Counted from the first letter of the stretch, positions 5,261-62,704 are shown. The stretch: 64,000 bases of DNA from an uncultured Chloroflexia bacterium (GCA_963747325.1 CAVVEM010000004.1:1-64000); one strand, 5' to 3'. Notes: generated by a model not told the origin, from the letters alone. Made by a program: numbers and translations.

Positions 5261-5292
5261 TGACTAACTGTGTGCTTAATATGATCTGCAAG

Positions 5293-5327: not shown

Positions 5328-5414
5328 TTTCAGCATTCTTTTTTTAATCAGACCCGTTACTTTTTGCTTCCATTTGCAATAATTCATATAAATCCACTAA
5401 CCGCTCAGAATAAA

Positions 5415-23388: not shown

Positions 23389-23389
23389 T

Positions 23390-31166: not shown

Positions 31167-31277
31167 AAGTTGGTATGATTATAACATACGGAATTCTTCA
31201 AGCTGAATATAAAAATGATCTTTGTTTTCCATTATAATTAGAATGATATTTTAAATTAGGACAACTGTGAACTTAAT

Positions 31278-31736: not shown

Positions 31737-31759
31737 CAGCCTCATAACAGAAGGTACTT

Positions 31760-32095: not shown

Positions 32096-32161
32096 AAAAA
32101 ATTGCAAATATAAATTTGCAAGCTTATAATAAAGCATCGGAAGTACGGCAAGGAGGGAAGT

Positions 32162-34042: not shown

Positions 34043-34059
34043 GCCCATAGCCGATAATT

Positions 34060-34968: not shown

Positions 34969-34998
34969 CATCAGGTTCGTTTTTATTTGGTACAGGGT

Positions 34999-36462: not shown

Positions 36463-36471
36463 AATAAAATT

Positions 36472-42977: not shown

Positions 42978-43256
42978 GAATTGCCTCAGTCTAACAAAAT
43001 AGATAATATTAATAATAATAGCATAAATAATAATAAATATAAATTGTGATCTTTTTTGGAAAGGGATAAAAAATTGAACCCCCGAAATTTTACGGCAGGG
43101 AAGGGTGGAGGAGTTGAAACAAACGCAAAGGAAAAATTGAAATATAAACCCAAATCCAAATAAAATATTATGGGTTTAATACTATAATCAAAAGTATCAA
43201 TTTATTTCACCTGGTCTCGGATGAGGGCAGAGGAACTTTTCATTGTAGAGGCAATT

Positions 43257-44387
43257 ATGATTTCAATTGAACAACTTGATACAACTTCCCGAAAACAACG
43301 AAACGAATTTGTGAATTTTCATTATGAGCTTTATCGAAAGTGTCCTCAATGGGTGCCGCCATTTCGGGCGGATATCCATGTCATGATGAATCGTAAAAAA
43401 CACCCGTTTTATGAACATTCCGACGCTGATTTCTTCCTTGCGAAAAGAGATGGAAAGGTAGTCGGAAGGATTGCCGCTCTTGAGAATAAACCTTTCAACA
43501 AGTATCACAACAAAAATGAAGCGCAATTCTATTTGTTTGACAGTATTGAAGACCAGGAAGTCTTTGATGCCTTGTTTGAAGCCGCTTTTGAATGGGCAAA
43601 AAAGCGTGGTCTGACCTCACTGGTCGGCCCCAAAGGATTCAGTTCGTTCAATGGATACGGCATCCAGGTGGAAGGTTTCGAACATCGTCAAATGATGACC
43701 ATGATGAATTACAACTATCCCTATTATCCCAGAATCATGGAAGGTATGGGATTTACCATGGCTGTGGATTTTGTCTCCACCTATATTCCCCGTGCTTCCG
43801 CCGTGCTGCCTGAGAAGGTAACCCGGGTGGCTGAACGAATCATTGAGAAACAAAAATTCAAAGTCAAAGAATTTAAATCCAAAAAAGAACTCATCTCCTG
43901 GGCAGATCCAATTGGTGAGGCTTATAACAATACATTCGTCAATAACTGGGAATATTATCCGCTGACAAAGAATGAAATCACCTTTGCCATGAAAGATATT
44001 ATGATGGTGGCAGTCCCGGATTTGATGAAGATTATCACCTATGACGATGTCGTCATTGGATTTTTGTTGGCATTTCCGGATGTTTCCAAAGCCCTGCAGC
44101 GGCATAATGGTCATTTGACCCCCTGGGGTATTATCGATATGCTGCTTGAGATGAAACGGACGAAATGGGTTTCCTTGAACGGTGTTGGCATCTTGCCCGA
44201 GTATCATGGCCGGGGAGGAAATGCGTTATTGTATTATGAAATGGCAAAGATTATCAGGGAATCCGGCTTTGAGCATATTGAAGAAACTCAAATGGCGGAT
44301 ACGGCGGTCATGGTCCGCAAGGATATGATTACCCTGGGGGCGGAAATCTATAAAAAACATCGTGTTTACAAAATTGATATTTCATAA
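43257..44387 (+). CDS. GNAT-like acyltransferase family protein (~375 aa), function unknown
   Basis: C-terminal LNGVGILPEYHGRGGNALLYYEMAK resembles GNAT motif A; RBS AGAGG upstream of ATG 43257 (alternative start 43221). Confidence 0.5.
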   Translation: MISIEQLDTTSRKQRNEFVNFHYELYRKCPQWVPPFRADIHVMMNRKKHPFYEHSDADFFLAKRDGKVVGRIAALENKPFNKYHNKNEAQFYLFDSIEDQEVFDALFEAAFEWAKKRGLTSLVGPKGFSSFNGYGIQVEGFEHRQMMTMMNYNYPYYPRIMEGMGFTMAVDFVSTYIPRASAVLPEKVTRVAERIIEKQKFKVKEFKSKKELISWADPIGEAYNNTFVNNWEYYPLTKNEITFAMKDIMMVAVPDLMKIITYDDVVIGFLLAFPDVSKALQRHNGHLTPWGIIDMLLEMKRTKWVSLNGVGILPEYHGRGGNALLYYEMAKIIRESGFEHIEETQMADTAVMVRKDMITLGAEIYKKHRVYKIDIS

Positions 44388-44392
44388 AAAAT

Positions 44393-44420
44393 AAAACCGG
44401 CTCAGGCCGGTTTTATTTTT
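44393..44420. terminator. bidirectional rho-independent terminator
   Basis: Stem aaaaccggc/gccggtttt with loop tcag, then ATTTTTT; the convergent minus-strand gene ends at 44402. Confidence 0.6.
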
Positions 44421-45724
44421 TGAATTATATCGATTGTTTGACTGATAATCCAGGCACCTAACATACTGCTGAAGGGGATCAGAATTATAACGTAGCGTTG
44501 GTACAGCCCTCCTAGCAGACTAAGACCGACCATGGCACCCCCAAACCCGAAATAAAATAGACTCCATTGGGGAAAATCAGGCGGCAGATTGGATCTGGAT
44601 TTCCACCAGGTTAAACTCTGTAACAAAAACGCCGAGAGGATGCCGACCACCTGCAGTGAAGCCAGGAAAACAGACCGCTTTTGATGCTGCAGGAGAATCC
44701 GGGTGTAGGCGTCAAAAGCGCTTTGCTGTTCCGCATGATAATTTGCAACATCCTCTACTGCTGCAGGCTCAAAAAAGGTATGATAGTTGACCATAAGCAG
44801 GCGAATTAATTTTGATTGAGGAATTCTCTCCGGATAATTCTTCAGCAGGTATGCATTCGTAGCTTGAGTGAGCTCTGTGCGTTCCTGTATGGCAGCCTGG
44901 ATGGTATGGAGTGGATCGAGCCATGAAACAGGATTAATAAGGTAAGTGATGAATAGAGGAATCAAAATGAAGAGGCTGGCTGTCTTTATCCATTCAGTTT
45001 TGTTTTGTCGCAGATTGAGGATGATGTAATAAAGAATGTACATAGGGATAAAAAATAAGGCTGTCTGTTTGCTATTCAGGCAGAGTGTGAAAAGAAGCGG
45101 TACACCGATAGCATGTTTTTTCTGATCTAAAATAAGCATCAACAATAAACAAACCAAAAAAATGAAGATTCCTTCAGCCATGGCTCGTCGGGTATGTAAA
45201 AGAATTAATGGATTCAAACCAAAAAAGAGCACAGCGAGTATTGCAGCCCGATGATTGATCAGTTTTCTGGCCGCCTGGTATAAAAAAAAGAAGCCAAATG
45301 GGATGAAGAGAAGGACGGCTGTCCGTGCGATTTGCAGCGCTTCATTTGTGGGCATGCTGCCAGCCTGAAGGTTGGCCTGCCAACTTTGGCTCCAATCCCA
45401 ATCGGAGGAATTGGCCGGTAGACCGGCTATGATTCTGGCAAATCCAATAATCAATGTGTTAATAGGCGGGTCTATTAATCGATAATGTAGTTTAAGATCA
45501 ATCAGATCCCCTTGATGAAACGTCAGCGAAAGTGGATTATTCAGCAATTGCTCAACATCATTACTTTTATACAGATAAGTCGCTTCATCTGGATGAAATG
45601 GAACAGTATTGAGCGTGATACAATACAAACTGAACAAGAGGACAATCAGCGTACTTATTTGGAAAAAGGGAAGGGTAAAAAGTTTCTGAATGCTCAAGCG
45701 ATGGAGTTTTATTTTTATTGACAT
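44402..45724 (-). CDS. GT-C-fold membrane glycosyltransferase-like protein (ArnT/PMT-like), paralog 1
   Basis: At least 9 predicted TM helices; HPDEATYLY loop motif after TM1, like the DE motif of the polyprenyl-P-sugar GT39/GT83 families. Confidence 0.6.
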   Translation of the reverse strand: MSIKIKLHRLSIQKLFTLPFFQISTLIVLLFSLYCITLNTVPFHPDEATYLYKSNDVEQLLNNPLSLTFHQGDLIDLKLHYRLIDPPINTLIIGFARIIAGLPANSSDWDWSQSWQANLQAGSMPTNEALQIARTAVLLFIPFGFFFLYQAARKLINHRAAILAVLFFGLNPLILLHTRRAMAEGIFIFLVCLLLMLILDQKKHAIGVPLLFTLCLNSKQTALFFIPMYILYYIILNLRQNKTEWIKTASLFILIPLFITYLINPVSWLDPLHTIQAAIQERTELTQATNAYLLKNYPERIPQSKLIRLLMVNYHTFFEPAAVEDVANYHAEQQSAFDAYTRILLQHQKRSVFLASLQVVGILSAFLLQSLTWWKSRSNLPPDFPQWSLFYFGFGGAMVGLSLLGGLYQRYVIILIPFSSMLGAWIISQTIDIIQKIKPA

Positions 45725-47321
45725 GCTTCAGTCCCGTCCAACGGTATTTTGGTTGGTTGTTTTGCTTCTGATTGCCTTTGGCTGGAAAGGTGTTTTGATC
45801 GGTTGGAATGCCTTTCCTTTCAATAGTGATGAAGCGATTGTAGCTTTAATGGCCAAACATATTCTCTCCGGTGAGCGACCTATCTTTTTTTATGGCCAAG
45901 CCTATATGGGCAGTTTGGATGCCTATTTGGTCGCTTGCGGATTCTTGATTTTTGGCCAAAAAGTGATCGTTATTCGCATTGTTCAAAGCTTGCTTTACGG
46001 TTTTACAATCTTGTGTACTTATTTTATCGGAAAATTGGCGTTTCAGTCCTCGAAAATCGGATTAATTGCTGCAGTATTGCTGGTTTTTCCCACAATCAAC
46101 GGCACTTTGTACACCACTGTCAGCCTTGGGGGCTATGGCGAAGCATTGCTTATAGGGTGTGTGATTATTTATCTGGTTTTCAAAATCCCATTTGAGTTGC
46201 AGAAATCCCATAGTGCTTCATTAAAAGTACTTCTTTTGGCTTTCCTGACTGGTTTGGGAATTTGGGTTCACGGGGTTACATTGGTTTTCAGTTTGCCGGC
46301 AGGTTGTTACTTCCTGTATCAGAGCTATCAAAAAAAAGTACCCGCTCACCGGATTCTTCAATGGTTTGGGATTGGACTGCTTGGCGCTGCAATAGGACTT
46401 CTCCCCATTCTGTATTATATATTTCAGCATGGCGTTCAGACGGTATGGATGGAATTATTTGGCTCAGCAGTTGCCGTTGAGACCGGCCCCTGGTTACTGA
46501 CCCTTGCAAATCATTTATTATCCCTACTCCTCTTTGGAATCCCTGTCCTCTTTGGTATGCGTCCGCCATGGACGACAACCGTGCAACAGACGGCATTATT
46601 GCCCTTACTGACTGTTTTTTTGTTGGTTGTGGGCTTTATTCTCTATCGCGATATTCGTTCTCGGAAGATGCCTGCTGCAGGGTATTTATGTCTTGCGGTT
46701 ATATTGCTGTTATTTAGCGCGTTTGTCTTTACTTCATTTGGCGTTGATCCTTCGGGCCGATATTTCCTCCCATTAATGATTCCAGGTTCATTGCTCGCTG
46801 GATATGCAATTTCAAATCTGATGCTGCAAAAGAAAGCCTGGGGATTTCTCATAGCCGGTTGGTGTATTTATCAGATTGGTGTGACAGGTAGTTTGGCAGT
46901 CCAGCCACCTTATTTAACCACCCAGTTTTATACTCCTGCGATGATCGATCACAAGTATGATGATGAGTTGATCGAATTCCTGAACGATAATCAACTGACT
47001 AGAGGATATACCAATTACTGGGTAGCCTATCCGTTGGCCTTTTTATCCGGGGAGGAACTGATCTATGTACCCAAACTTCCCTACCATCCTGATTTACGTT
47101 TTACAGAGAGGGATAATCGCTATCTTCCGTACCAGGACCTCGTAACCCGTAGTCAGGAGATCAGTTATATAGTGAGCAGAAATCCTGTACTGGATGCATA
47201 CCTGGTTGAACAATTTGCATCAGCTGGGATTGACTATGTCTATAAGGAAATTGGGGATTATCATATCTATTACAACCTTTCCTCCGATCTACGGCCGGAT
47301 GAGCTGGGTTTTTCTTCCTAG
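45723..47321 (+). CDS. GT-C-fold membrane glycosyltransferase-like protein, paralog 2
   Basis: FNSDEAIVALMAKHIL motif after TM1; polytopic. Its ATG (45723) lies 2 nt inside the divergent ATG of paralog 1 (45724). Confidence 0.6.
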   Translation: MLQSRPTVFWLVVLLLIAFGWKGVLIGWNAFPFNSDEAIVALMAKHILSGERPIFFYGQAYMGSLDAYLVACGFLIFGQKVIVIRIVQSLLYGFTILCTYFIGKLAFQSSKIGLIAAVLLVFPTINGTLYTTVSLGGYGEALLIGCVIIYLVFKIPFELQKSHSASLKVLLLAFLTGLGIWVHGVTLVFSLPAGCYFLYQSYQKKVPAHRILQWFGIGLLGAAIGLLPILYYIFQHGVQTVWMELFGSAVAVETGPWLLTLANHLLSLLLFGIPVLFGMRPPWTTTVQQTALLPLLTVFLLVVGFILYRDIRSRKMPAAGYLCLAVILLLFSAFVFTSFGVDPSGRYFLPLMIPGSLLAGYAISNLMLQKKAWGFLIAGWCIYQIGVTGSLAVQPPYLTTQFYTPAMIDHKYDDELIEFLNDNQLTRGYTNYWVAYPLAFLSGEELIYVPKLPYHPDLRFTERDNRYLPYQDLVTRSQEISYIVSRNPVLDAYLVEQFASAGIDYVYKEIGDYHIYYNLSSDLRPDELGFSS

Positions 47322-47340
47322 GTTTAAAAACGGAGTTCCT

Positions 47341-48825
47341 ATGCAGAGCAGATTAAGCTGGTTATTCTTTTTTATCACCATCCTGAGTGTTGCCAGTATG
47401 GCTGCCCGAGTTCCTCTGGATACTGATATGTGGTGGCATATTCGAGCCGGCGAAGTGAGTATTTCCACGCATCAGCCTTTGGTAGTTGATGTATTTTCTT
47501 ATACCAGGGCGGGTGAATCCTGGGTGAATCACAGCTGGCTGGCGCAAGTCGTCTTGGCATTCCTTTATCAAAAATTGTCTTATTCTGGGTTGACGCTTTA
47601 TGTGGTTTTGCTCTCTGTCTTGACCTTTGGTCTGTTGTTCTTTCTATTGGACGGACATCCTTTTATAAAGGCTTTGCTGATCATCTTTGGCAGTGCTGTG
47701 GTTTCCACGATCTGGAGTCCAAGGCCGCAATTATTTACCCTGCTTTTTCTCAGCGTCCTCGTTTTTGCGGTATGCCGATATCGCCAGGGCAAAATCCGCT
47801 GCCTTTGGCTGATACCCTTGCTTTTTACCCTTTGGGGAAACCTTCACGGCGGTTATTTTACCGGGATTTTGTTTTTAGGTTTTACATTAATTGGCTTGAT
47901 CTATGATCGCTGGTTTACTTCAAAACAGCTAAATGACTTCAAAGGACAATTTCCCCATCTGTTGTACATTACACTGCTCAGTATTCCGGCATTATTGATC
48001 AACCCCAACGGGGTGGGTATTTTAAAAATACCATTTGCTACCGTGGGCGTGAATATCTTGCGGGATCTGATAGATGAATGGGCCTCACCGGATTTTCACC
48101 AACCATTACAATTGATCTTCCTGGCGATATTCTTGGGAACGATGTTTTTATTAGCCATGAATAAAAATCATAAATCCTCAGCTCTCCTGATTCCTTTATT
48201 CGGATTCTCCCTGTTAGCTTTTTATGCCAAAAGGAATATTGCTCCCTTGATGATTGTTCTGCTGCCTGTTCTGGCTGGCGAGATTAACACCTGGTTGAAT
48301 ACCTTGAACTTTTCGCCTTACTTTTCTGATTTACTTATCCAGCCGGAATATAGCTGGAAATTGCGAGATGAAAATGCACTGCCTATGCGCGTATTAAATT
48401 TAATTCTTGTGTTTATCATCGGACTCATCGCTGTGGGAAAATTCGTTTATGTCTCCCATCCGGCAGTTGTGCAGGCTTACTTAAAACAGGAAATACCGGT
48501 GGCAGCATACCAGGCAATGGACAATATTTCCTTTACGGGGAATGTGCTTAATGAATACGGATGGGGGGGATATCAAATCGAGTTCTATCCGCAAATCCCC
48601 GTTTTTGTGGACGGGCGTACGGATTTATTCGGGGATGACGGCATCGGCCAATGGATGCAGTTAATGCGTGCCGATGAAGATTATTTAAAACTTTTGGATG
48701 ATTATGATATCAAAGTGGTTTTGTTAAAGCCGGAACGGTCCATAATTCAGGCGCTTAAAATGATGGGCTGGAATGAAAAATATGCCGATCATGGCTCAGT
48801 GTTGTTAACGCGTCCTGTACCATAA
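47341..48825 (+). CDS. GT-C-fold membrane protein, paralog 3
   Basis: RBS ACGGAG upstream; PLDTDMWWHIRAGE loop motif; at least 10 TM helices. Confidence 0.55.
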   Translation: MQSRLSWLFFFITILSVASMAARVPLDTDMWWHIRAGEVSISTHQPLVVDVFSYTRAGESWVNHSWLAQVVLAFLYQKLSYSGLTLYVVLLSVLTFGLLFFLLDGHPFIKALLIIFGSAVVSTIWSPRPQLFTLLFLSVLVFAVCRYRQGKIRCLWLIPLLFTLWGNLHGGYFTGILFLGFTLIGLIYDRWFTSKQLNDFKGQFPHLLYITLLSIPALLINPNGVGILKIPFATVGVNILRDLIDEWASPDFHQPLQLIFLAIFLGTMFLLAMNKNHKSSALLIPLFGFSLLAFYAKRNIAPLMIVLLPVLAGEINTWLNTLNFSPYFSDLLIQPEYSWKLRDENALPMRVLNLILVFIIGLIAVGKFVYVSHPAVVQAYLKQEIPVAAYQAMDNISFTGNVLNEYGWGGYQIEFYPQIPVFVDGRTDLFGDDGIGQWMQLMRADEDYLKLLDDYDIKVVLLKPERSIIQALKMMGWNEKYADHGSVLLTRPVP

Positions 48826-49622
48826 TAGATTTGAACGGGAATTTTTTGTTCCTGATCCGCTATTTGTTCTGTGAGAACCGGATAATTTTTGCGGATGCTG
48901 GCTGCTTCGTCCGGATCAATTATCGTGGTGTGAACTACCTCAGCTGTTTGATTTGCCTGGAATAGAACCTCACCCCATGGGTTTATGATGCTGCTGCTGC
49001 CCCCGAAAACTTCTCTGTGCGTATTACCGACGGCATTGCAGGCAACGAGAAACGACTGATTTTCAATGGCTCTTGCCGAAAGTAAGGAAGTCCAATGATC
49101 AATTCTGCTGATAGGCCAGGCAGCAGGCAACAGAAAAACATTGCAGCCTGCGTGGGCAAGGGATTGGAACAAGGCTGGGAAGCGCAGATCATAACAAATG
49201 GAAAGCCCAAGGGTGGCAAAATTTGTTTTAATCCCGGTATAGGATTTGCCCGATTGAAACCAGTGATGTTCATTCATCAAGTGGATCAGGTGGATTTTAC
49301 GATAAACAATTTTTTCCCCGCAGGGGCCAAGCAAAACAAACGTATTATAATAGGCTGAGTTTTCTTGTGTAATATAACTGCCAGCGATCCAGATCTTTTT
49401 TTGAGCCGCTTGCAGGGCTAATTCATCGAGGATTTCTCCATCAGCATAAACATGAGTACTACAATTTTTCAAATCAAAACCGGATGTCCATAATTCCGGC
49501 AAGAGCAGAAGATGATCGTGAACTGGGTTGAGCGCTACAATTAACTGTAGTACCTTCTCCATGTTTCGATCAGGCTGCCCGAAAGCAGAGTGAATTTGTG
49601 CTATGGTTATTTCTGTTTTCAT
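48789..49622 (-). CDS. carbon-nitrogen hydrolase (nitrilase superfamily) protein
   Basis: E-K-C triad context: LLLLPELWTSGF, YRKIHL, LGLSICYDLRFP. Confidence 0.8.
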   Translation of the reverse strand: MKTEITIAQIHSAFGQPDRNMEKVLQLIVALNPVHDHLLLLPELWTSGFDLKNCSTHVYADGEILDELALQAAQKKIWIAGSYITQENSAYYNTFVLLGPCGEKIVYRKIHLIHLMNEHHWFQSGKSYTGIKTNFATLGLSICYDLRFPALFQSLAHAGCNVFLLPAAWPISRIDHWTSLLSARAIENQSFLVACNAVGNTHREVFGGSSSIINPWGEVLFQANQTAEVVHTTIIDPDEAASIRKNYPVLTEQIADQEQKIPVQIYYGTGRVNNTEP

Positions 49623-49672
49623 TTGTCCTTCGATTATAATTTAACCGATGTATCTTTGAATAGGAGTCTCTA

Positions 49673-50950
49673 TTGAAGCATAAAAATTACCAAAAAAATC
49701 TGATGATTGTTCTCGGGCTGGCTGGCTTGATCATTCTTATTGTAGTCTATTTCGCAAACCTGAAGTTAGCAGGTTTACAGGGGATAGGCCAGGATTTTTT
49801 CAGTCAGTGGACAAATACCAGAACATTTTTAACCACCGGATTTTCGCCGTATACACAAGAAGCGCTTTTTCAAGTGGAACAGGAAGCGGTTTTAAGTGAT
49901 TTATCCTTCACTGGTAAGTTTAGAATAAACGCAGAACCTCTCTACGGATTATTGATTACCCTTCCTTTTGTTATGATTCCTTCTTTTCAATATGCCTTCG
50001 CGGCCTGGTTGGTGGTCAATGAGGCTTTGCTACTCTTTATTTTCTGGCTGCTATATCGTTTGAGTTCATGGAAAGGTGGGCGGGCTTTATTTGTTTTTAC
50101 CTGTTTAACTGTATTAGGCTGGAAATCATTACTTGTAATACTTTTCAGCGGCAGCAGTACAATTCTGATCCTCTTTACAATGATTGGCGTGTTGTATGCG
50201 CTTAAACATGGAATGAATGAGCTAGCTGGCGTGTTATTGGCGATAACCACAGTAAAGCTTGAGATTTTATGGCTGCCGATTCTCTTCTTATTGATCTTTT
50301 GTTCAGCCAAACAAAACCGGAAAACATTGCTCTGGTTTTTCGTTTCTCTCGTTTTGGTAAGTGTAAGCCTGCTACTGCTAGATCCAGGCTGGGTTCAGGA
50401 TTACCTTATTGCATTTCTTACTCAGTTATTGAATTATCCCCACAACCTTTTTAAAGCCACTTCCATAGCGCAATTATTTAATGAAAGCTATTTTAGTTAT
50501 TTTTCCCAGGCTCTTGAAACCATTTTCCTGACCTTCGGTGTTCGCTTGGGCAATGTATTCACCCTCATTATTATTGGTTTGATGATTTTTGAATGGTCTT
50601 CCATGCGAAAAAGAGATGATAAAGGTATTCTGTGGTTGTTTTGTTTAACGGTTTTATTCAGTGCATGGATTGGGGTAAATAACAAAACAGAATCATTTGC
50701 CTTTTTTGTACCGATCATCTTTCTATTTATCAGCCTGTTGAATGATCGTTGGAAGGGGAATGGAAAACTTCTTTATTGGATTATGCCTGTGGTTCTATTG
50801 GCACTAAATTGGCTCTCCTTTTCGACGGATGCGCCCGTATTAATTATGCAATTTGGACTATATCCAATTATTTTTTCAGTTTTACTCTATTGGATTCGGT
50901 GGTGGGCTTTGTCCAAAAATTTTCTCGTTTATCAGTGGGACGCAAGGTGA
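49673..50950 (+). CDS. GT-C-fold/DUF2029-like membrane protein, paralog 4
   Basis: TTG start with AGGAG RBS; polytopic with at least 10 TM helices. Confidence 0.5.
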   Translation: MKHKNYQKNLMIVLGLAGLIILIVVYFANLKLAGLQGIGQDFFSQWTNTRTFLTTGFSPYTQEALFQVEQEAVLSDLSFTGKFRINAEPLYGLLITLPFVMIPSFQYAFAAWLVVNEALLLFIFWLLYRLSSWKGGRALFVFTCLTVLGWKSLLVILFSGSSTILILFTMIGVLYALKHGMNELAGVLLAITTVKLEILWLPILFLLIFCSAKQNRKTLLWFFVSLVLVSVSLLLLDPGWVQDYLIAFLTQLLNYPHNLFKATSIAQLFNESYFSYFSQALETIFLTFGVRLGNVFTLIIIGLMIFEWSSMRKRDDKGILWLFCLTVLFSAWIGVNNKTESFAFFVPIIFLFISLLNDRWKGNGKLLYWIMPVVLLALNWLSFSTDAPVLIMQFGLYPIIFSVLLYWIRWWALSKNFLVYQWDAR

Positions 50951-50967
50951 ACTCTACACTGAATCTG

Positions 50968-52447
50968 ATGCTGCATAAATACTGGAAAGGTATGTGCTTG
51001 ATCAGCCTGGCAGTCTTTCTTCGTGTATTGATGATTAATCAAAGAGGAATTTGGTACGACGATGCCTTCAGCATCCTACTGGCAAAGCAACCTATCGCAC
51101 AAATCTTGACGGGTACGGCTGCTGATACCATGCCGCCGCTTTATTATTTCTTGCTGCATTTCTGGATGAAAATCTCAACGCAGCTTGCCTGGATTCGTAA
51201 CCTCAACCTTGTCATCTCTCTCCTGACATTTGCCTATGTTTATGCTTTGGTGAAGCGCCTGTCCGGCAAAACTGCCGGCTTGTTGGCGGTTTTCTTCTGC
51301 GCCATTTCACCATTCCTGATTTATCACAGTCAGGAAATTCGCATGTATATGCTGCTGGCTCTGTTTCAAGTCGCCTACTTAAATTACTTCATACGCTGGT
51401 TTCACAACGATTCCAAATTTGCCTGGGTGGGCTTGATCCTTTCAGGTGCGGGAGCCTTATATAGTCATAATCTGGCTGTCTTTGGCCTGCTGATCCCCGG
51501 TGTTGTACTTCTCTTGCAGCGCAATTGGCATGCCCTTTGGCGTTGGTTGAAACTTTTCATCCTTAGCCTTATTCTATTCTTTCCCTGGCTTGTTTACGTT
51601 CCGGGACAGATTGAGAAGATTCAAAACGCGTTTTGGACCCCTCGTCCCGGAGTGCTTGAAGTCGTTCAGTCCATCTATAGTTTGTTCTCGTTTCTGCCTC
51701 AGCCTTTTCCCTGGGTGATGATCACTGGTGTGCTTTGTTTTCAACTTCTGGGTCTTTTTAACCTGGGAATTTATCAAACAGCGAAATGAAATTTCCAATC
51801 GTGTTTTATTGACCTTGGGGATGGTTTTTATTCCGGTAGTTTTGTTTATCCTTTCGTATTTTATGCGGCCCGTTTATGTGGCGCGAGGATTTATTCTTTC
51901 GGGCATTATGCTGTATGCGTTGGCTGGAATTCTAACTGCAAGGGGATGGCCGAATGCCTTTGGAAAAATCATTATTGGATTAATGATTCTAATAAGTAGT
52001 GTTAGTTTGCCCTTCTATTTTTCCTTTAACTCCTTTCCTCGTTCGCCTTTTGCCGAAGCCTGTTCTTTTGTGGAGGCACAGGTGAGGGATAAGTCGGATC
52101 GGGTTGCTGTGCTGCATGATAATAAATTGAGTTCTTTTCCTTGTGTGATTTATGAACCAACCCTGGATCAGATGTTTTTAGGGGATCCACCGGGGTCACA
52201 TAATGACACTTTTGCGTTGGCTTCCCAGCAGGCCATGCAGCTTTTTCCGGAAAAATCCATCCAGGATGCAGTGAACTCAAAAGCTGAGGTTTATTTCTTT
52301 GTCTTTACCAGGGCGCTGGATGAGTATACTGAGATTCAAACAAATATTTATCCTCCCCTGGCGTATTTGGAAGCGAACTACCAAGCATTGGACATCTCCT
52401 ATTTTAACGATCTGGCGGTTTATCATTATGCAAGCAAAGAAGATTGA
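50968..52447 (+). CDS. glycosyltransferase family 39-like (PMT_2) membrane protein, paralog 5, one frameshift near 51750-51790
   Basis: GIWYDDAFSILLAK motif; ORFs 50749-51789 and 51728-52447 join as ...LGIYQ / EFIKQRNEISNRVLL. Confidence 0.65.
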
Positions 52448-54029
52448 TCGCACTTTTCTGCAGGATGGATTGGGATTGGCTTTTTTTGCTATTCTCATCA
52501 CTATACCACCCATGTTCTTGCAGCTTGTCCCGGGATATATGGATGCGGAATATTATTTTATGGGGGGATTAAATCTATTCCAGGGAAATGGCTTTTATGA
52601 AAACGCGCTCTGGAATACACTGATTCTGCCGGATGCGCTGCCTATGGCCTCTCATCTTTATTGGATGCCGCTGCCATCCATTCTGGCCAGTTGGGGGATG
52701 ATGCTTTTTCAATCCAATGCATACGTGTATGCCCGTTTCTTTTTTACCCTCTTTGCTGCCTTGATCCCTGTAATTACTTTTGGATTTACATATCGGATCA
52801 GCAAAAATCGAGCAATGAGCATCACAGCGGGGTTCATGGCCGTATTTTCAGGTATGTACCTTGTTTATTTATCGCTGGTGGAGTCTTTTTCACCGTATAT
52901 GCTTTTCGGCGGCCTTATTATTTTTCTGGCTTATTATTACCTTGAATCCCAAAATAAAAATCATTTTGTTCTTGTTTTTGGCACCTTAGGCTTGCTGAGC
53001 GGCTTGATGCATTTATCCCGGGCGGATGGTATCCTCTGGGTGGTATTTGTCGGCCTATTGATTCTCTATCGACTGATTAAAAAGAAAAATTGGCTGGAAG
53101 CGATTGGTTCTGGTTTGTGTTTGCTGGCTGGATATTTGGGTTTGATGCTGCCCTGGTACTTGCGAAATTTCCACTTATTTCAGGGTTTATTTCCGCCATC
53201 CAATCAAAGCACCCTGTTTTTGCTGGGCTATAATGATAATTTTCTATACCCAGCCGGTCAATTGGCCCTCCAGCGCTGGTTGGATTCTGGCTGGCAGGCG
53301 ATTCTAACAATCCGATTACAGGCTGTTGGCGCTAATTTGCTGACAACACTGATGATTCATTTTAACCTCTTGTTACTCCCTTTTTTTATTCTTTACCTGG
53401 CAGAAAATCGGAAATCATTTTTTATTCGCTGGGTTGTGCTTTGTTATTCCTTACAGTTCATTTTCATGAGTGTGTTGTTTCCATTTGCCGGAATGCGAGG
53501 CGGTTTTTTTCATTCCGGATCCGCTTTTCAAATTTTCTTTTGGGTAGGCTCCAGCCTGGGATTGTATGCTGCTGTAGGCAAGTTAATGCTCAGGCGCAGG
53601 CAAAGCGATGAAAGAATTTATCGAATATTTTCTGTCGGCATTCTTGTTATCCTGTTGGCTTCTACGATATTGCTGTATCAGCAGAAAGTCTTTGGAAAAG
53701 AGATGAACAAAGAATATTGGCAGCAAGGTTATCTGGTTTATACCAGGCTGAATCAAGATCTCATCTCCCATGATATTCCTGCAGCCGCTAGTGTATTTGT
53801 CAATAATCCACCAGGTTTTTTCCTTGTGTCCCAACGCAAGGCAGTGGTTGTTCCAAATGCATCCATTGATGAGGTACATGAGCTTGCCAAGAAATATGAA
53901 ATTAATTATTTGATTCTGGATGAGCATATTGTTCCACAATTGGCTGATTTCTATCAAGAAGGTGCATCCGGGCATGGATTCGACTATTTATTTGCCTCGG
54001 GATCATTCAAAGTATACAGGGTGGAATGA
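52428..54029 (+). CDS. GT-C-fold membrane glycosyltransferase-like protein, paralog 6
   Basis: Starts MQAKKIDRTFLQDGLGLAFFAIL; GYMDAEYYF loop motif; polytopic. Confidence 0.55.
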   Translation: MQAKKIDRTFLQDGLGLAFFAILITIPPMFLQLVPGYMDAEYYFMGGLNLFQGNGFYENALWNTLILPDALPMASHLYWMPLPSILASWGMMLFQSNAYVYARFFFTLFAALIPVITFGFTYRISKNRAMSITAGFMAVFSGMYLVYLSLVESFSPYMLFGGLIIFLAYYYLESQNKNHFVLVFGTLGLLSGLMHLSRADGILWVVFVGLLILYRLIKKKNWLEAIGSGLCLLAGYLGLMLPWYLRNFHLFQGLFPPSNQSTLFLLGYNDNFLYPAGQLALQRWLDSGWQAILTIRLQAVGANLLTTLMIHFNLLLLPFFILYLAENRKSFFIRWVVLCYSLQFIFMSVLFPFAGMRGGFFHSGSAFQIFFWVGSSLGLYAAVGKLMLRRRQSDERIYRIFSVGILVILLASTILLYQQKVFGKEMNKEYWQQGYLVYTRLNQDLISHDIPAAASVFVNNPPGFFLVSQRKAVVVPNASIDEVHELAKKYEINYLILDEHIVPQLADFYQEGASGHGFDYLFASGSFKVYRVE

Positions 54030-54030
54030 A

Positions 54031-55524
54031 ATGAATTATGGAACTGACAAAATTTTACGAATAGGCATTCCCATAATAGCGATTCTTGCTGTGGGTGGAT
54101 ACCTGATCTTCAGTTTAAATGGATACGGGTTGGGTTACCCACTGGATGATGCCTGGATCCACCTCACCTATGCCAGAAATATAGTCTCTTTTGGTCAATG
54201 GATGTTTCTGCCGGGTTTGGTTTCCGGCGGTTCCACTTCCCCCTTATGGACAATTTTACTAACGCCGGCTTTTTTTCTCCGTCTTGCGCCGGTACTATGG
54301 ACAACCTTGCTTGGCATCCTCTGCCTTACCGCATTGGGATTTTTATCCAAAATATTTATCAAACAGCATAACGAAAAATCCATAAATATAAAATTTGCCA
54401 TATTTGTGATGCTGGAATGGCATTTTGTTTGGGCCGCACTCTCCGGCATGGAAACCATGCTGCAAGTAGTCGGTAATTTGTCAGCGATGGTGATGATCTT
54501 TTTTGTATATAAAGAAAGAAATACAGCTCCTATGTGGTTTTTAACCGGTGTTCTGATAGGGGCATTGGTATGGATCCGGCCGGATAGTTTGACCTGGATG
54601 GGTCCGGCGATGGTTCTGGCCTTTGCCGCCAGCTATTTCTCCGGAGTTCGAAAATCCTCTGTCTGGTTATTCCTCCTGCTTGGTTTCCTGCTTCCCTTTG
54701 GGGCGTATTTATTGTTTAATTGGCAGGTTGCAGGCAGCATCTGGCCAACCACCATGTATGCAAAGCAGGCCGAATATCAGGCACAATTAAGTATGCCGTT
54801 TTTGAACCGCTATATGAAATTAATGAGCTTGCCGTTTGTGGGAAGCAGCATCCTTTTAGTGCCTGGCTTGATTCTTTTGGGTATCAAAGGGATGAGGACA
54901 AGAAATTTGCCCGTTCTGGTATATTATCTTTGGTGGCTGGGCATGGTGGGGTTGTATGCCTGGAAATTGCCAGTAACCTATCAACACGGACGTTACATGA
55001 TCCCTACGATGATCATTCCAATCCTCTGCGGCCTGGTCGGATCTATCCAGTTAGTCGAATCTTTGAAGATGGGCATGGTCTGGAAAAATCGATTGGTATT
55101 TGCCGGCGGTAGTATGTTGATCGGCCTGCAATTAGCCTTTTATGTTTTAGGGGGAAACGCCTATCGTCAGGATGTTGGCGTAATTGAAACGGAAATGGTT
55201 CAAACAGCTAAATGGGTGGCTGGAAATATCCCCGGTGATAAAAAACTGGCCGTGCATGACATTGGTGCCATGGGGTATTATGCTGAGCGTGAATTCCTTG
55301 ATCTGGCCGGACTGATAAATCAAGAAGTGATTCCTTTCATTCGAAATGAGAAAAAATTGGCAAAGTTCCTGGATGAACAAGAAATTGATTACGTTATTGT
55401 TTTCCCGACCTGGTATCCAACCATGCTGGCAGATAAAGAGATTCTCTATTCCACTTCCAGTAAATTATCCCCTTCATTGGGGGGTGAAAATATGACCATT
55501 TATTGCTGGAAAAAATGTAAGTGA
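54031..55524 (+). CDS. GT-C-fold membrane glycosyltransferase-like protein, paralog 7
   Basis: GYPLDDAWIHLTYARNI loop motif, related to paralog 3; begins 2 nt after the paralog 6 stop. Confidence 0.55.
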   Translation: MNYGTDKILRIGIPIIAILAVGGYLIFSLNGYGLGYPLDDAWIHLTYARNIVSFGQWMFLPGLVSGGSTSPLWTILLTPAFFLRLAPVLWTTLLGILCLTALGFLSKIFIKQHNEKSINIKFAIFVMLEWHFVWAALSGMETMLQVVGNLSAMVMIFFVYKERNTAPMWFLTGVLIGALVWIRPDSLTWMGPAMVLAFAASYFSGVRKSSVWLFLLLGFLLPFGAYLLFNWQVAGSIWPTTMYAKQAEYQAQLSMPFLNRYMKLMSLPFVGSSILLVPGLILLGIKGMRTRNLPVLVYYLWWLGMVGLYAWKLPVTYQHGRYMIPTMIIPILCGLVGSIQLVESLKMGMVWKNRLVFAGGSMLIGLQLAFYVLGGNAYRQDVGVIETEMVQTAKWVAGNIPGDKKLAVHDIGAMGYYAEREFLDLAGLINQEVIPFIRNEKKLAKFLDEQEIDYVIVFPTWYPTMLADKEILYSTSSKLSPSLGGENMTIYCWKKCK

Positions 55525-55616
55525 CAGATTTGTAACAATAAAATCATTTATGCTATACTTATTAATTAGTACCCAAATTATTGGGTTGATATTAAGAGGC
55601 TAGGAGAACCGCTGAT

Positions 55617-56669
55617 ATGGATCTTGCTTCAGCTGTAACCGATCAAAACTTTGATGAGTACAAAAGTGAATTACTGAGTGAGATCGAGCGTTCTCGCAAT
55701 AAATTGGATGAAATATCCAATATGATTGAGCAAAGCCAGATCGAGTTAAATAAACTGGTTGAGCGAAACGCTTCCATCTCCGGGCATTTGCAGCATGTAA
55801 AAAGTCAAATTGACGTTATTCCCCGGCCTGATATTCGCACGGCTTATAATGCTGCCATGGATGCCCAACAACGGCTGATGGTTATGCGCGGTCAGCTGGA
55901 AAAATTGCAATGTGAGCGGGACCAAATCCAACAGTACATGAAATTTCTGGAAAAAACCAATCAGAATTTTTATCGAGATGGTGAAAATAATAATCGGAAA
56001 TCCAGCCAAAGCGGAAAAGATGTCCTTGAGATGGTGATTAGTTCACAGGAAGCGGTACGGCAACGCCTTTCCAGGCAGATGCATGACGGCCCTGCACAAG
56101 CTTTGTCTAATTTCATTGTGCAAGCGGAAATTGCTGGCCGTCTCTTTGAAATTGATGCAGGTCGAGCCAGAGATGAACTCTCCAATTTGAAAGCAGCAGC
56201 TTTAAGTACTTTTCAAAAAGTACGCATTTTTATTTTTGAATTACGCCCCATGATGTTGGATGATCTGGGTTTATTTCCTACCATTAAGCGCTATGTAGAT
56301 AACTTTAAAGAAGAGATTTCTCATGATGTGACCTTATCCATTAAAGGACAAGAACGTCGTCTTGAGCCTTATCTCGAGGTTATGATTTTTAGAGCATTAC
56401 AAGAGTTATTAGGAAATGCTGCCAGACATAATAATGAAAAAGTTGATATTGATGTTAAAATTCTGATCGAAGATAATTGGATCAAGGTGTCTGTAAGTGA
56501 TACCGGTAAGGGTTTTGATCCAAGCAAACTGGATAAATCTGAGGGTTTGGGTTTAAAATTAATCAAGGAAAGAGTCGAACTCCTCGGCGGCAATATGGAT
56601 TTTGAATCGGCGATAGGACAAGGAACAAAAATTACTTTTAAGGTTCCTTGTTTGGAAATGAAAAAATAA
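55617..56669 (+). CDS. soluble sensor histidine kinase, HisKA_3 (NarX/DesK-type) with N-terminal coiled coil
   Basis: H-box RQMHDGPAQAL; HATPase_c with N (LLGNAARHN) and G (DTGKGF, GLGLKLIKERV) boxes; no TM helix. Confidence 0.8.
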   Translation: MDLASAVTDQNFDEYKSELLSEIERSRNKLDEISNMIEQSQIELNKLVERNASISGHLQHVKSQIDVIPRPDIRTAYNAAMDAQQRLMVMRGQLEKLQCERDQIQQYMKFLEKTNQNFYRDGENNNRKSSQSGKDVLEMVISSQEAVRQRLSRQMHDGPAQALSNFIVQAEIAGRLFEIDAGRARDELSNLKAAALSTFQKVRIFIFELRPMMLDDLGLFPTIKRYVDNFKEEISHDVTLSIKGQERRLEPYLEVMIFRALQELLGNAARHNNEKVDIDVKILIEDNWIKVSVSDTGKGFDPSKLDKSEGLGLKLIKERVELLGGNMDFESAIGQGTKITFKVPCLEMKK

Positions 56670-56716: not shown

Positions 56717-57890
56717 ATGATGAAGAAGACGTTAGGTCTCCTTACTGGCGGTGGCGATGTACCTGGATTGAATCCATGTATGAAAGCAGTTGTGATGAGT
56801 GCGTTGGAGGCTGGTTACAATGTAATTGGTATCCGACGAGGATGGGGTGGGCTGCTAGGTTACAATCCGGATGATCCAGAAAGTGAAGCCAAGAACATCC
56901 GTCAGATTAACCAGTGAGGATGTACGTATTATTGACCGCACAGGCGGAACATTTTTACATACTTCCCGAACCAATCCACAACGGGTAACCCCTGGGATGG
57001 TTCCTGATTTTCTCAAAGGGTCTCCATTGGGAAAACAGATTGATGATCAGGGTACGATGGATTATACAGCTCATATTTTACGTGTGCTGGAAATTCTCGG
57101 CATTGACACCATGGTGACGATTGGTGGTGATGATACCTTAAGCTACTCGGTCCGTTTACATCAGGAAGGAATACCGGTTATTGCCATCCCCAAGACCATG
57201 GATAATGATGTTTTTGGCACTGATTATTGTATTGGTTTCTCTACTGCCGTTACCCGTAGTGTGGAATTTATTACCAATATGCGCACCTCGGTCGGTTCCC
57301 ATGAACGAATTGGTATCGTGGAGTTATTTGGACGCAATTCCGGTGAGACCAGTTTGATCAGTGCATATCTGGCCTATGTTGACCGGGCAATTATTACGGA
57401 AGTCCATTGTAATGTCGATCGACTGTGTGATTACCTGATGCGTGATAAAAGCAATAATCCATCCAATTACGCCATCATGACCATTTCGGAAGGCGCAATT
57501 TTGGAAGGTGGTGCCGTGATTGAAACCGGAGAAGAGGATGCTTATGGACATCGCAAATTAGGTGGTGTTGGGGAGCTTCTTGCTGAACAGGTAAAACAAA
57601 TCACCGGCGAAAATATCATGTACCAGCAATTGGCCTACTTGATGCGTTCCGGCGCACCCGATTCGTTGGACCGCATGGTTGCCATGTCCTTTGGTCATCT
57701 GGCCATTCAGTTGGTTCAACGGGGAGATACCGGCAAAATCGTCGGCTTGCACGGTGGAAAATACACCACCATGCCGGTTAGCATTGTCCTGGCAGGCAAA
57801 AAACGGGTAGATGTTCCCGCATTTTATGATATTGAACATTACAAACCCAAAATTAAAGATTTTATGGGCGTACCGATGTTCTTGAGTTAG
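56717..57890 (+). CDS. pfp: 6-phosphofructokinase, probably PPi-dependent; one frameshift near 56890
   Basis: GGGDVPGLN, then TIGGDDT and IPKTMDND. Asp in GGDD and Lys in PKT are the known PPi-PFK signature. Confidence 0.75.
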
Positions 57891-57936
57891 CACCACAAAA
57901 AACTTATTCAAATACCGTAAAGGTATTTCTGGAGGC

Positions 57937-58891
57937 ATGATGATTGTAACAACTGCAAAATTATTTGAAGCCGCTTATGGTAAATATGCGATTGGTGCAT
58001 ACAATATTAACAATCTGGAACAAACCATGGGTTTATTCCAGGGGAACTTGCAAAGTAGCGCGCCATTTATTATCCAGATCAGCAAAGGTGCCCGCAAATT
58101 TACCCATAAGTTAATGCTGGAAGGTTTGATTCGCAGCGCCGACCAAGTATTTCCCGAAGCGATTTTTGCTGTCCATCTGGATCATGGCGATGAAGAGACC
58201 TGCTATGATTGTATTGATTCCGGTTTCTATAGCTCTGTGATGATTGATGCAAGCCATTATTCTTTCGATGAAAATATCGCCATTACCAAGCGTGTGGTTG
58301 ATCGAGCCCATGCCAAGGGGCTGGTTGTGGAAGCTGAATTGGGCCAATTGGGCGGCGTGGAAGAGGATGTTAAAGTCAGCGAAGCAGAAGCAAAATTAAC
58401 CAATCCGGATCAGGCAAAAGAGTTTGTCGAACGGACGGGTGTGGATTCACTGGCCTGTGCAATTGGTACCAGCCACGGCGCTTTTAAATTCTCCGGTTCA
58501 CAATCCTTGCATTTTGATGTTCTGGAAGCCATTCAGAAGAATTTGCCTGGTTTCCCATTGGTTATGCACGGCAGCAGTTCTGTTCCTCAAGAAGAAGTAC
58601 AGCGTATTAATGCAGCTGGCGGAAAGATGGGTGGCGCAAAAGGTGTCGATGCCAGCCAATTCAAACATGCCGCTGAACTTAGGCGTTACCAAAGTCAATA
58701 TTGATACCGATGGTCGTCTGGTTTGGACGCGCGTTCACCGTGAATACTTCCGTGATTATCCTGAGAAATTTGATTTACGTGATCCTGGTGTTGTTTTCAT
58801 GAAAGAATATGCGAATTTTATTGCTGATAAGAATGATAAATTGGGCAGCGCTGGTCAGTTGGAGATTGTAAGAAAACTTCTGGCTAAATAA
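57937..58891 (+). CDS. fba: class II fructose-bisphosphate aldolase, one frameshift near 58675
   Basis: GGAGG RBS; HLDHGD...SVMIDASH...GTSHGAFKF...MHGSSSV, then the shifted ...GVTKVNIDTDGRL. Confidence 0.8.
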
Positions 58892-58961
58892 TTTACTTTA
58901 AGTTGAAAGGTAGACATCTACTGGTGTTATACGGTAGATGTCTTCTTATTTCTGGAGGCAT

Positions 58962-59463
58962 ATGCCCAAACAGGACCAAGGAATGTCATCTGATCGCTAT
59001 CAAATTATTCCCCGTACCTTGGTGTTTGTTGAAAATGAGGACAAAATTTTATTATTAAAAGGTGCGCCGACAAAACGCATATGGGCAAATCAATTCAATG
59101 GCATTGGGGGTCATATTGAAAAAGGAGAAGACGTACGCAGTGCTGCGGTGAGGGAACTAAAGGAAGAAACTGGGTTAAGCGTCTCTGTTTTAAAGCTCTG
59201 TGCGTTGATTATGATTGATGTAGAAGACAGTTCCGGTATCGGGTTATTTGTTTTTCGAGGAAAGGATCCGATGGCGAACAAAGAAGTTCGGAGGAGGGAA
59301 GTTTGTGTTGGATTCCCGTTGCGGATTTGCTGAAATATCCTTTAGTGGAGGATTTACCGGTATTAATTCCCGAAATTCTTAACCTGCATGCGAATGATGA
59401 GCCATTGTTTATCCGTTATACCTTTGATGAAAAGGATCAACTGGTCATCAAAATCAATCGCTG
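58962..59463 (+). CDS. NUDIX hydrolase, C-terminal region frameshifted near 59290
   Basis: Nudix box GGHIEKGEDVRSAAVRELKEETGL; GGAGG RBS 4 nt before ATG 58962. Confidence 0.7.
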
Positions 59464-61261: not shown

Positions 61262-61726
61262 TCAATCCTCAACATCATTATACGTCCAAAGACGGTTGAT
61301 GAAGAAGTTCCAGATCATGACGATGCCAATCGCACCCGCCAGTGCAAGGTTCTTGCTGATCACCTCCGCCGAAAGCGGCAGGGTGGTCATGGTAGTGAAT
61401 AACTTTAAGAAAAGAAACTCAAAGCCGGAGTAAATAAAGGTACGGATAATTAATCCAATAATGTTTACAACGAAGAATTGGGTTAATTGACGTGAAAAAT
61501 GTTTGCTGCGTGAATCCGGGTAGGTCCAATAGCGATTCCACAGGAAGTTGCTAATTACAGCAACGGTAAAGGAAATGGATTGGAATACCAGATTTTTGCC
61601 ATCCGGGAAAATCACAGCAAGCAAGTTAAAAATAGAAAAATCCACAACAGCGCCAATAGCGCCAACAATGGCAAATCGTATGAAACGAGTTTGTTCTTTT
61701 TTATTGGTAATAATTTGATTAATCAT
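61262..61726 (-). CDS. GtrA-family membrane protein
   Basis: 154 aa, 4 TM helices, RFIRFAIVGAIGAVVDF...FLWNRYWTY; its ATG overlaps the upstream stop as TGATG. Confidence 0.75.
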   Translation of the reverse strand: MINQIITNKKEQTRFIRFAIVGAIGAVVDFSIFNLLAVIFPDGKNLVFQSISFTVAVISNFLWNRYWTYPDSRSKHFSRQLTQFFVVNIIGLIIRTFIYSGFEFLFLKLFTTMTTLPLSAEVISKNLALAGAIGIVMIWNFFINRLWTYNDVED

Positions 61727-62682: not shown

Positions 62683-62704
62683 AAAGATCCTCTTTGATGT
62701 AAGT

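Follow-up and report, generated by a model that had tools for sequence, protein, structure and literature searches.

The window analysed here, a 64,000-nucleotide stretch of DNA from an uncultured Chloroflexia bacterium, carries seven polytopic membrane-protein genes in a row (44402-55524), named A to G below. Gene A is divergent, on the minus strand, and the other six lie on the plus strand. A hydrolase gene is found inside this array, a histidine kinase gene follows it, and two possible accessory genes lie further downstream.

Gene A, 44402..45724, minus strand: 440-aa GT-C protein of the PMT_2 type, divergent from B, without a C-terminal soluble domain
Gene B, 45723..47321, plus strand: GT-C protein of about 532 aa with a C-terminal extracytoplasmic alpha/beta domain
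Gene C, 47341..48825, plus strand: 494-aa GT-C protein of a large family without a Pfam or NCBIfam model
CN_hydrolase, 48789..49622, minus strand: 277-aa omega-amidase/YafV-like protein, on the opposite strand
Gene D, 49673..50950, plus strand: 425-aa GT-C protein of the GT87 family (PimE-type), without a C-terminal domain
Gene E, 50902..52447, plus strand: GT-C protein of the PMT_2 type, 493-514 aa, with a +1 frameshift in the window
Gene F, 52428..54029, plus strand: 533-aa GT-C protein, the hub of the remote-homology network
Gene G, 53974..55524, plus strand: GT-C protein of 497-516 aa
HisKA_3 kinase, 55617..56669, plus strand: soluble, DegS-like, last gene of the D-G unit
GtrA-family gene, 61262-61726, minus strand: small membrane protein
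NDP-sugar SDR, 61726-62808, minus strand: Epimerase and GDP_Man_Dehyd matches in Pfam

The lengths of 425-576 aa given in the earlier note on this DNA were those of the longest ORFs. They have been corrected by gene calls on identical Logan contigs and by the lengths of orthologs to 440 (A), 508-532 (B), 494 (C), 425 (D), 493-514 (E), 533 (F) and 497-516 aa (G). For gene B, the start candidates are ATG codons at 45690 or 45723; the gene callers took 45795, which would cut TM1. The true start of gene G is probably 54031, 2 nt past the stop codon of F. With this start the F-G gap is 1 nt, the B-C gap being 19 nt and the E-F overlap 20 nt, and such tight or overlapping ORFs fit the operon-like layout suggested earlier.

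Gene E is read in the window as two ORFs, 50749-51789 and 51728-52447, with a 1-nt insertion in a T-rich run between about 51735 and 51767. The frame change is seen by tblastn with orthologs, and the gene is intact (514 aa) in two other assemblies (Logan contigs) in which the neighbouring hydrolase protein is identical. This points to an assembly artefact, namely a 1-nt indel, rather than to a pseudogene. The assembly looks indeed rich in indels, since the PFK, aldolase and NUDIX genes of the window are also frame-shifted relative to their orthologs and Lon is broken into three ORFs.

Fold, acidic motifs and family boundaries

The assignment of all seven proteins as GT-C-type membrane glycosyltransferase-like, each bearing a conserved acidic motif in its first outer loop, is supported by Pfam, profile-profile links, fold searches and motif conservation. 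They display the polytopic GT-C fold, with an N-terminal TM module and long outer loops; B, C, E, F and G share an architecture with a C-terminal domain, which A and D lack. The Pfam family PMT_2 (PF13231, gathering threshold 26.1 bits) is matched over the cutoff by A (30.9 bits) and E (42.8 bits), and just under it by B (24.8 bits). Gene D matches GT87 (PF09594) at 40.7 bits for a cutoff of 25, over profile positions 4-236 of 237. No Pfam match at all was obtained for C, F and G. A few orthologs of F carry precomputed PF13231 or PF02366 matches, and F itself weakly matches the O-mannosyltransferase TMEM260 in the PDB (E = 0.07). None of the window proteins matches Pfam PMT (PF02366) or STT3, and the more specific ArnT or GT39 membership proposed earlier is thus not retained.

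Remote relationships were revealed by hhalign. Gene A is linked to family G at 94% and to family E at 87%, B to E (97.5%) and F (96.5%) over nearly the full length, and F to G (98.6%), E (97.6%) and B (96.5%). Family C connects with E, F and G by way of an additional family, at 93-96%. The top fold-search matches of C and G are only GT-C-fold proteins, nearly all of them glycosyltransferases, and transporters appear there with non-significant scores only.

The six acidic motifs quoted in the earlier note are all present, and they are 94-100% conserved within each family (34-79 sequences, orthologs plus the window protein). D46/E47 of the gene A motif HPDEATY is 94% conserved (34 sequences), as is D36/E37 of NSDEAIV in B. 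Gene C has an invariant D27-x-D29 in its first outer loop, the YDD motif of E and D39 of MDAEYY in F are 100% conserved, and the acidic pair of G is D58/D59. In D, a GGNDF motif after TM1 is kept in nearly all full-length orthologs, its window version being GQDFF with D41. The predicted topology would place these motifs on the outer face of the membrane. That they could instead be transporters, or polytopic membrane proteins of another kind, with acidic motifs that arose by chance, a reading that the missing Pfam matches of C, F and G and the score of B under the cutoff might have favoured, was tested and is highly improbable in view of the fold searches, of the 96-98% links from B and F to family E, which is PMT_2-positive, and of motifs that are near-invariant among orthologs.

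The array had been described as paralogous, the product of an unusual expansion, a view that did not survive closer comparison. Neighbouring genes lack pairwise similarity, the best E value in an all-against-all BLASTP among the seven being 0.008, and their kinship is detectable solely by profile-profile comparison or fold. Judged from their sequences, the seven genes are only remotely related; they belong to seven distinct families that diverged long ago, and every family has orthologs of its own throughout the class. Since these orthologs occupy the same positions in species at only about 30-45% identity, the divergence must be older than the class radiation. A recent local expansion of one ArnT/PMT-like gene could have accounted for the GT-C fold and similar length common to all seven, and for the C-terminal-domain architecture common to five; it is ruled out by the BLASTP results, the ortholog families and the profile comparisons, and has practically no likelihood left.

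Gene order in the Anaerolineae and neighbouring genes

The comparison of synteny in related genomes that had been proposed was run on 81 loci of species-representative Anaerolineae, many of the non-complete ones being cut by contig ends. The seven families are found in the same order, A (minus strand), B, C, D, E, F, G and kinase, in 23 of these loci, at protein identities of only 27-45%; five further loci have six families. Such a shared order across species goes beyond chance. Orthologs of A hold the same position in 33 loci. Variations are also observed: G is absent from three Bellilinea species, Longilinea arvoryzae has an extra GT87-like gene in the place of the hydrolase, and C, A, B or G is duplicated in tandem in some lineages. 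This natural variation in gene content fits a modular glycan pathway.

Within the Anaerolineaceae, synteny extends over the entire 25-kb neighbourhood, aroA, PFK and NUDIX included, so the conserved order is there weak evidence of a functional link. The adjacency of C, F and G is also kept in distant orders, where the flanking housekeeping genes all differ and where the core module consists of C, a GT87-like gene, F and G. Among 24 such loci, C is preceded by a TIGR03025 polyprenyl glycosylphosphotransferase (382 bits, over cutoff) in nine and adjoined by a Wzy_C plus TPR protein in four; A and B were not found beside the core module in these loci.

The seven GT-C enzymes might be functionally independent, for example as protein O-mannosyltransferases, an ArnT-like lipid modifier and a PimE-like glycolipid mannosyltransferase, their adjacency resulting from co-regulation or inherited synteny and not from a common product. 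The synteny of unrelated housekeeping genes in the Anaerolineaceae, the unlinking of A and B from C, F and G in distant orders, the differing architectures and the lack of an initiating or ligating enzyme in the window all agree with such independence. It is however considered unlikely, because the core module stays together despite changed flanks, its neighbours there (a phosphoglycosyl transferase, a Wzy_C-like gene) being typical of a single glycan pathway, and because the ORFs are closely spaced or overlap and the same kinase ends the unit in most loci.

This kinase, a soluble protein as described earlier, scores 50.1 bits for HisKA_3, 67.4 for HATPase_c and 29.2 for DegS in Pfam, and no hydrophobic segment was found in its sequence. 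It follows G in 29 of the 37 loci with enough downstream sequence, rearranged clusters included, and may have a regulatory role. The cognate response regulator of a two-component system is missing next to it, both in the window and in the relatives examined. No LuxR/NarL-type regulator was detected among the window ORFs scanned, the only regulator of the window being of the OmpR type (37263-37982).

The carbon-nitrogen hydrolase inside the array is confirmed by a Pfam CN_hydrolase score of 135.6 bits, and its best NCBIfam match is the PRK10438 amidohydrolase, under the cutoff of that model. Only 21 of 44 loci carry it between C and D; it is an optional insert and probably does not belong to the system. 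The GtrA gene (Pfam GtrA_DPMS_TM, 76.8 bits) is also confirmed. Its neighbour, previously named UDP-xylose synthase (uxs), proved to be an extended SDR of the sugar-nucleotide type, with dTDP-glucose 4,6-dehydratase as best NCBIfam match (138 bits, far short of the cutoff of 365); its naming as a UDP-xylose synthase is not retained. This pair lies 5 kb downstream of the array, behind PFK, aldolase, NUDIX, RsmD and AAA ATPase genes, and is found at the corresponding place in Longilinea arvoryzae. Synteny alone does not tie it to the array, because the unrelated housekeeping genes are equally conserved there; a role as accessory genes is possible.

Comparison with known GT-C systems

Among the closest known systems is the mycobacterial/corynebacterial set for arabinogalactan, LM and LAM (AftA-D, EmbA-C, MptA-D and PimE), in which multiple different GT-C enzymes also serve a monoderm-type envelope. 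Gene D is GT87/PimE-like, and G matches AftA, AftB and AftD strongly in fold, as C does moderately. By analogy, extracytoplasmic elongation from polyprenyl-phosphate sugars could be the common logic. A GtrA-family protein is encoded near the array, as is Rv3789 in the arabinogalactan cluster. The array differs by the lack of sequence-level Emb, Aft or Mpt membership (only JGI names some G orthologs 'arabinofuranosyltransferase'), by its seven unrelated families in one contiguous operon-like arrangement without cytoplasmic glycosyltransferases, and by the absence of DprE/UbiA-type donor-synthesis genes from the window.

Within the ArnT-PMT branch (PMT_2, RgtA/B/C/D-like), A and E exceed the threshold, B falls marginally short of it, and F and G are remote relatives; C and G have orthologs that bear the UniRef name 'Glycosyltransferase RgtA/B/C/D-like'. 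The array proteins have the DE or DD motifs of this branch in their first outer loop, but no PF02366 match and no MIR domain, and their C-terminal domain resembles in fold searches that of AglB, not that of ArnT. With the three-component Gtr systems (GtrA flippase helper, GtrB GT2 synthase, GtrC GT-C) and with ArnT-type lipid modification, the array would share the use of polyprenyl-phosphate sugars by GT-C enzymes. In contrast, the present locus has seven GT-C enzymes rather than one, a GtrA gene separated from them and no GtrB/ArnC-type GT2 in the window.

A likely envelope-glycan pathway and the place of gene C

The lipid-linked, multi-step envelope-glycan pathway put forward earlier remains the best reading, and is strengthened by the linked phosphoglycosyl transferase and Wzy_C-like genes of distant relatives. 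On balance, the locus is a class-wide conserved cluster of the Anaerolineae (Chloroflexota), with the DegS-like kinase as its last gene, and its seven GT-C enzymes are likely to build one envelope glycan outside the membrane. In each enzyme the TM bundle would span the cytoplasmic membrane and the catalytic Asp/Glu motif would lie in the first extracytoplasmic loop; B, C, E, F and G would add a small alpha/beta domain outside the membrane. By analogy with all characterised GT-C enzymes, each would transfer a sugar from a polyprenyl-phosphate-linked donor to the growing acceptor at the outer face, although the donor of C might be polyprenyl-diphosphate-linked instead. Since seven non-interchangeable enzymes are held in a fixed order, they could form seven distinct linkages of one complex glycoconjugate, such as a wall polysaccharide or lipoglycan. 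The acceptor would begin on polyprenyl phosphate on the cytoplasmic side and then be flipped; outside, the GT-C enzymes would elaborate it before its final transfer to the anchor, a sequence suggested by the phosphoglycosyl transferase and, in some loci, the Wzy_C/O-antigen-ligase-like gene adjoining the core module. Neither a polyprenyl-phosphate sugar synthase (GT2), an initiating transferase nor a ligase was found among the window ORFs scanned, and the sole flippase there was the distant GtrA. It is equally conceivable that several of the GT-C enzymes work on separate targets.

Gene C belongs to a family of more than 35,000 representatives, and its best fold matches are the oligosaccharyltransferases (OSTs) STT3, AglB and PglB, together with the C-mannosyltransferase DPY19. 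The OST-type fold extends to its C-terminal globular alpha/beta domain, which is like that of AglB-S2; its 494 aa are much shorter than the matched OST chains of about 700-860 residues. At the start of this domain, where OSTs carry WWDYG, family C has NEYxWGGY as its consensus; G-Y and the V-D-G further downstream are all that both have in common, the W-W-D triad being replaced by Y-N/G-W. The spacing from G to D in the invariant W408-G-G-Y411 ... F-V-D424-G is +14, the same as in WWDYGY ... LVDGG / LVDNN of the PglB and STT3 sequences checked.

Gene C could thus be a divergent OST-like enzyme for the en-bloc transfer of a polyprenyl-diphosphate-linked glycan to protein or wall, the other six lengthening this glycan sugar by sugar. 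The D-x-D of its first outer loop, the shared spacing and its location in distant lineages directly downstream of a phosphoglycosyl transferase, a class making diphosphate-linked intermediates, argue for such a function. The strict pattern, in the form of the window protein, was found only in family C among about 1.07 million ORF residues scanned, but it was picked after inspection and is seen in just 27 of the 79 sequences of this family. The loss of the triad stands against an OST, as do the profile searches: none of 30 family C members matched any Pfam model, STT3 included, and PDB OSTs were not matched by the full-length or C-terminal family profile. This function of C is therefore regarded as possible, if doubtful.

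Still tentative is the broader proposal that the Anaerolineae possess an undescribed, class-wide envelope heteroglycan made outside the membrane by seven distinct GT-C enzymes, with this locus as the core of its assembly. Family C would then represent a divergent STT3/AglB/PglB-like type of enzyme without the sequon-reading WWD triad, lost in the course of its divergence. If true, C would move a polyprenyl-diphosphate-linked glycan onto a non-sequon acceptor, either wall or protein.

Gene layout and GT-C assignment

The products of the seven adjacent genes A to G are all strongly hydrophobic, with numerous predicted TM segments. Their coordinates and those of the other two genes of the region 44402-56669 are listed below, together with the acidic motif of each membrane protein.

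Genes of the region, with coordinates, strand, protein length, acidic motif and its conservation in orthologs
44402-45724, minus: gene A, 440 aa; D46/E47, 94% conserved
45690/45723-47321, plus: gene B, 508 aa; D36/E37, 94% conserved
47341-48825, plus: gene C, 494 aa; D27/D29, 99% conserved
48789-49622, minus: carbon-nitrogen hydrolase
49673-50950, plus: gene D, 425 aa; 'GGNDF' after TM1, in nearly all full-length orthologs
50902-52447, plus: gene E, 514 aa; 'YDD', 100% conserved
52428-54029, plus: gene F, 533 aa; D39, 100% conserved
53974/54031-55524, plus: gene G, 516 aa; D58/D59, 97% conserved
55617-56669: soluble histidine kinase, last gene of the region

These lengths are gene calls from two other assemblies, both carrying a hydrolase protein identical to that of the window. 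They replace the lengths of the earlier note, for which the longest possible ORFs had been taken; by comparison with orthologs, B would be about 540 aa long and G about 497 aa. With the revised starts, B and C are separated by 19 nt, E and F overlap by 20 nt, and a possible start of G lies 2 nt past the F stop codon. Promoter and terminator scans are uninformative, since their counts match the shuffled expectation.

Gene E is split in the window into two ORFs (50749-51789 and 51728-52447), and tblastn with orthologs locates the frame change within about 51735-51767, in a T-rich run. The same gene is a single one of 1545 nt, versus a 1546-nt span in the window, in Logan contigs, which are other assemblies carrying the identical neighbouring hydrolase protein. 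PFK (near 56904-56950), the class-II aldolase (near 58676) and a NUDIX gene (near 59280) are likewise frame-shifted relative to their orthologs, Lon is broken into three ORFs, and the first ~90 profile positions are missing from MreB. These broken or truncated housekeeping genes (56720-59460, also 17009-19500 and 1012-1755) indicate that the window assembly is indel-rich and probably of long-read origin, and the break in E is therefore most likely not biological; a pseudogene was rejected on the same grounds and on the intact Logan copy. A single ORF at 22864-24057 joins the C-terminal domains of RecG to a cytidylyltransferase-like domain, and probably corresponds to two genes fused through another indel.

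Pfam assigns A and E to PMT_2 (30.9 and 42.8 bits) and D to GT87 (40.7 bits), all over cutoff, with B slightly under the PMT_2 cutoff (24.8 bits) and no match for C, F and G. NCBIfam contributes nothing more than a below-cutoff match between G and the putative glycosyltransferase family LA_3751/LA_3752. PDB sequences were searched with C, F and G, by single sequence and by profile HMM; nothing usable came out, the only result being F to TMEM260 at E = 0.07. Per-family ortholog alignments were built from 80 species-representative genome loci and their profiles compared, which linked F to G at 98.6%, E to F at 97.6%, B to E at 97.5%, B to F at 96.5%, A to G at 94%, A to E at 87% and D to E at 65%. 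C has no link to any other of the seven families; it is tied to E, F and G at 93-96% through f6, a further family of about 550 aa found in distant relatives and itself assigned to GT-C by hhalign. The C-terminal domain of G resembles that of AglB. The acidic loop motifs quoted in the earlier note are all real and kept in orthologs, and that of D can now be added to them. As neither of the refuting findings named in the earlier note, a transporter fold and a loss of the acidic loop, was observed, the GT-C assignment stands.

Origin and conservation of the seven-gene order

The array had been proposed to result from an expansion of paralogs. In an all-against-all BLASTP of A to G, no pair scored better than E = 0.008, and for each gene other species carry separate orthologs at the matching position. 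Recent paralogy is therefore ruled out, and the array represents assembled or anciently diverged diversity. The array comes from an uncultured member of the Anaerolineae, and the identity of its A to G to their orthologs in named relatives such as Bellilinea, Ornatilinea, Longilinea and Leptolinea is 27-45%, compared with about 75% for aroA and PFK in the same genera.

All seven families, in the order A(-) B C [hydrolase(-)] D E F G kinase PFK, are found in 23 of 81 loci; five further loci hold six families, and many of the remaining ones are truncated at contig ends. Local variations are observed. G is absent in three Bellilinea species, and in Longilinea arvoryzae a GT87-like gene (4392-5558 of locus L084) occupies the hydrolase position, which brings the uninterrupted run of GT-C genes there to eight. 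Diverged duplicates of C, A, B or G occur in certain lineages: a second C (24-28% identity to window C) lies directly upstream of the main one in L016, L021, L030, L035, L036, L039, L044, L047, L053, L056 and L061; A and B are duplicated as well in L036, and G in L067 and L076. The kinase follows G in 29/37 loci. The hydrolase was found between C and D in no more than 21 of 44 loci, and it is an optional passenger, rejected as a pathway member.

Gene A is adjoined by a 388-aa protein with a weak GNAT domain (43221-44387), present in 24 loci and, at about 60% identity, far better conserved than the GT-C genes. A link of this putative GNAT protein to the array is possible.

Core module in distant relatives and family C

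The grouping of C, a GT87-like gene, F and G is retained in distant Anaerolineae, Aggregatilineales-type genomes among them, with different housekeeping flanks. Upstream of this module, and of the C ortholog at about 10001, lie f6 and f7 (loci L045, L049, L057, L065, L076, L078 and L080), f7 being a polytopic protein of 650-780 aa and 10-12 TM segments that matches nothing in Pfam or NCBIfam and has no profile link to A-G. In 9 of the 24 distant loci examined, the genes upstream of the module include a polyprenyl glycosylphosphotransferase (Bac_transf; TIGR03025, 382 bits, over cutoff), and in 4 loci a Wzy_C and TPR protein lies upstream, next to C. A PspA-like protein, a GAF histidine kinase and OmpR-type regulators are found downstream. 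It is this gene content that argues most strongly for the module acting in one lipid-linked glycan pathway. Ten more recurrent neighbour families of the distant loci were set aside as unrelated on annotation (M16 peptidase, MFS, sigma-70 and ABC genes).

The analysis also brings out family C as a very large GT-C family with an OST-like (oligosaccharyltransferase-like) fold and neither a Pfam nor an NCBIfam model. In a library of 1.84 billion proteins, it counts 35,079 cluster representatives at E <= 1e-3 and 9,114 at E <= 1e-30; a Pfam scan of 30 members found no family, and no NCBIfam model matched the window C protein. Family C may deserve a GT-C family definition of its own. In its invariant 'WGGY ... 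FVDG', the G-to-D spacing is +14, the same as in 'WWDYGY ... LVDGG / LVDNN' of PglB and STT3, whose sequences were verified. The WWD triad of OSTs is not retained, and C profiles gave no match to PDB sequences, solved OSTs among them. By sequence criteria, C falls outside the OST family, and an OST-like en-bloc transferase activity looks like a lead, and a rather unlikely one.

Proposed pathway and comparison with known systems

In characterised GT-C enzymes (ArnT, PMT, Aft/Emb, PimE, ALG), the sugar comes from a polyprenyl-phosphate-linked donor and is passed to an acceptor on the outer side of the membrane. Beyond the fold, motifs and synteny observed here, we infer the donor, the acceptor, the joint action of A to G and the role of the kinase. 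Through its loop-1 carboxylates, each enzyme would perform such a transfer at the outer membrane face, and the seven distinct families could form seven linkages in one envelope glycoconjugate. The glycan would start on polyprenyl phosphate, be elaborated outside the membrane and finally be transferred to an anchor.

Donor-synthesis, initiation and ligation genes were sought across the window and none was found, the search for glycan genes outside the array returning housekeeping genes only. A GtrA protein and an SDR are encoded 5 kb downstream of the array at a conserved position. Their tie to it is unproven, since the housekeeping genes in between are equally conserved, and the SDR is not specifically UXS, so that its earlier label of UDP-xylose synthase was dropped. 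Elsewhere in the window, a eukaryote-like signalling cluster (29988-37002) comprises two Ser/Thr kinases, one with a PQQ beta-propeller, a PP2C phosphatase, a DnaJ-VWA protein and an FHA protein. The 673-aa protein encoded at 7666-9687 could, from a weak match to a Chlamydia-PMP-type repeat, be a surface protein.

The enzymology of the array is of an already known kind, nearest in logic to the mycobacterial arabinogalactan/LAM GT-C set and also to single-GT-C systems such as ArnT or GtrABC. Unlike in these systems, seven unrelated GT-C families stand in one contiguous array, with a soluble kinase last and no cytoplasmic glycosyltransferases; the full seven-gene order recurs in numerous species of a single class, with a C-F-G core that reaches distant orders. 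Our literature search found no paper describing the seven-gene cluster, and no biosynthetic locus assigned to the envelope layers of Chloroflexota. Polysaccharide or protein has been suggested for the layers of this envelope (PMC13319060, citing Sutcliffe 2011), which the same source describes as still chemically undefined.

The seven-gene cluster is a real feature, and its natural variants occur in culturable species, namely Bellilinea without G and Longilinea with an eighth gene. Since the envelope layers of Chloroflexota are chemically undefined, it is a useful candidate locus: with seven GT-C enzymes, and a complete order retained in many Anaerolineaceae-type genomes, it offers a concrete and testable candidate for envelope-layer synthesis.
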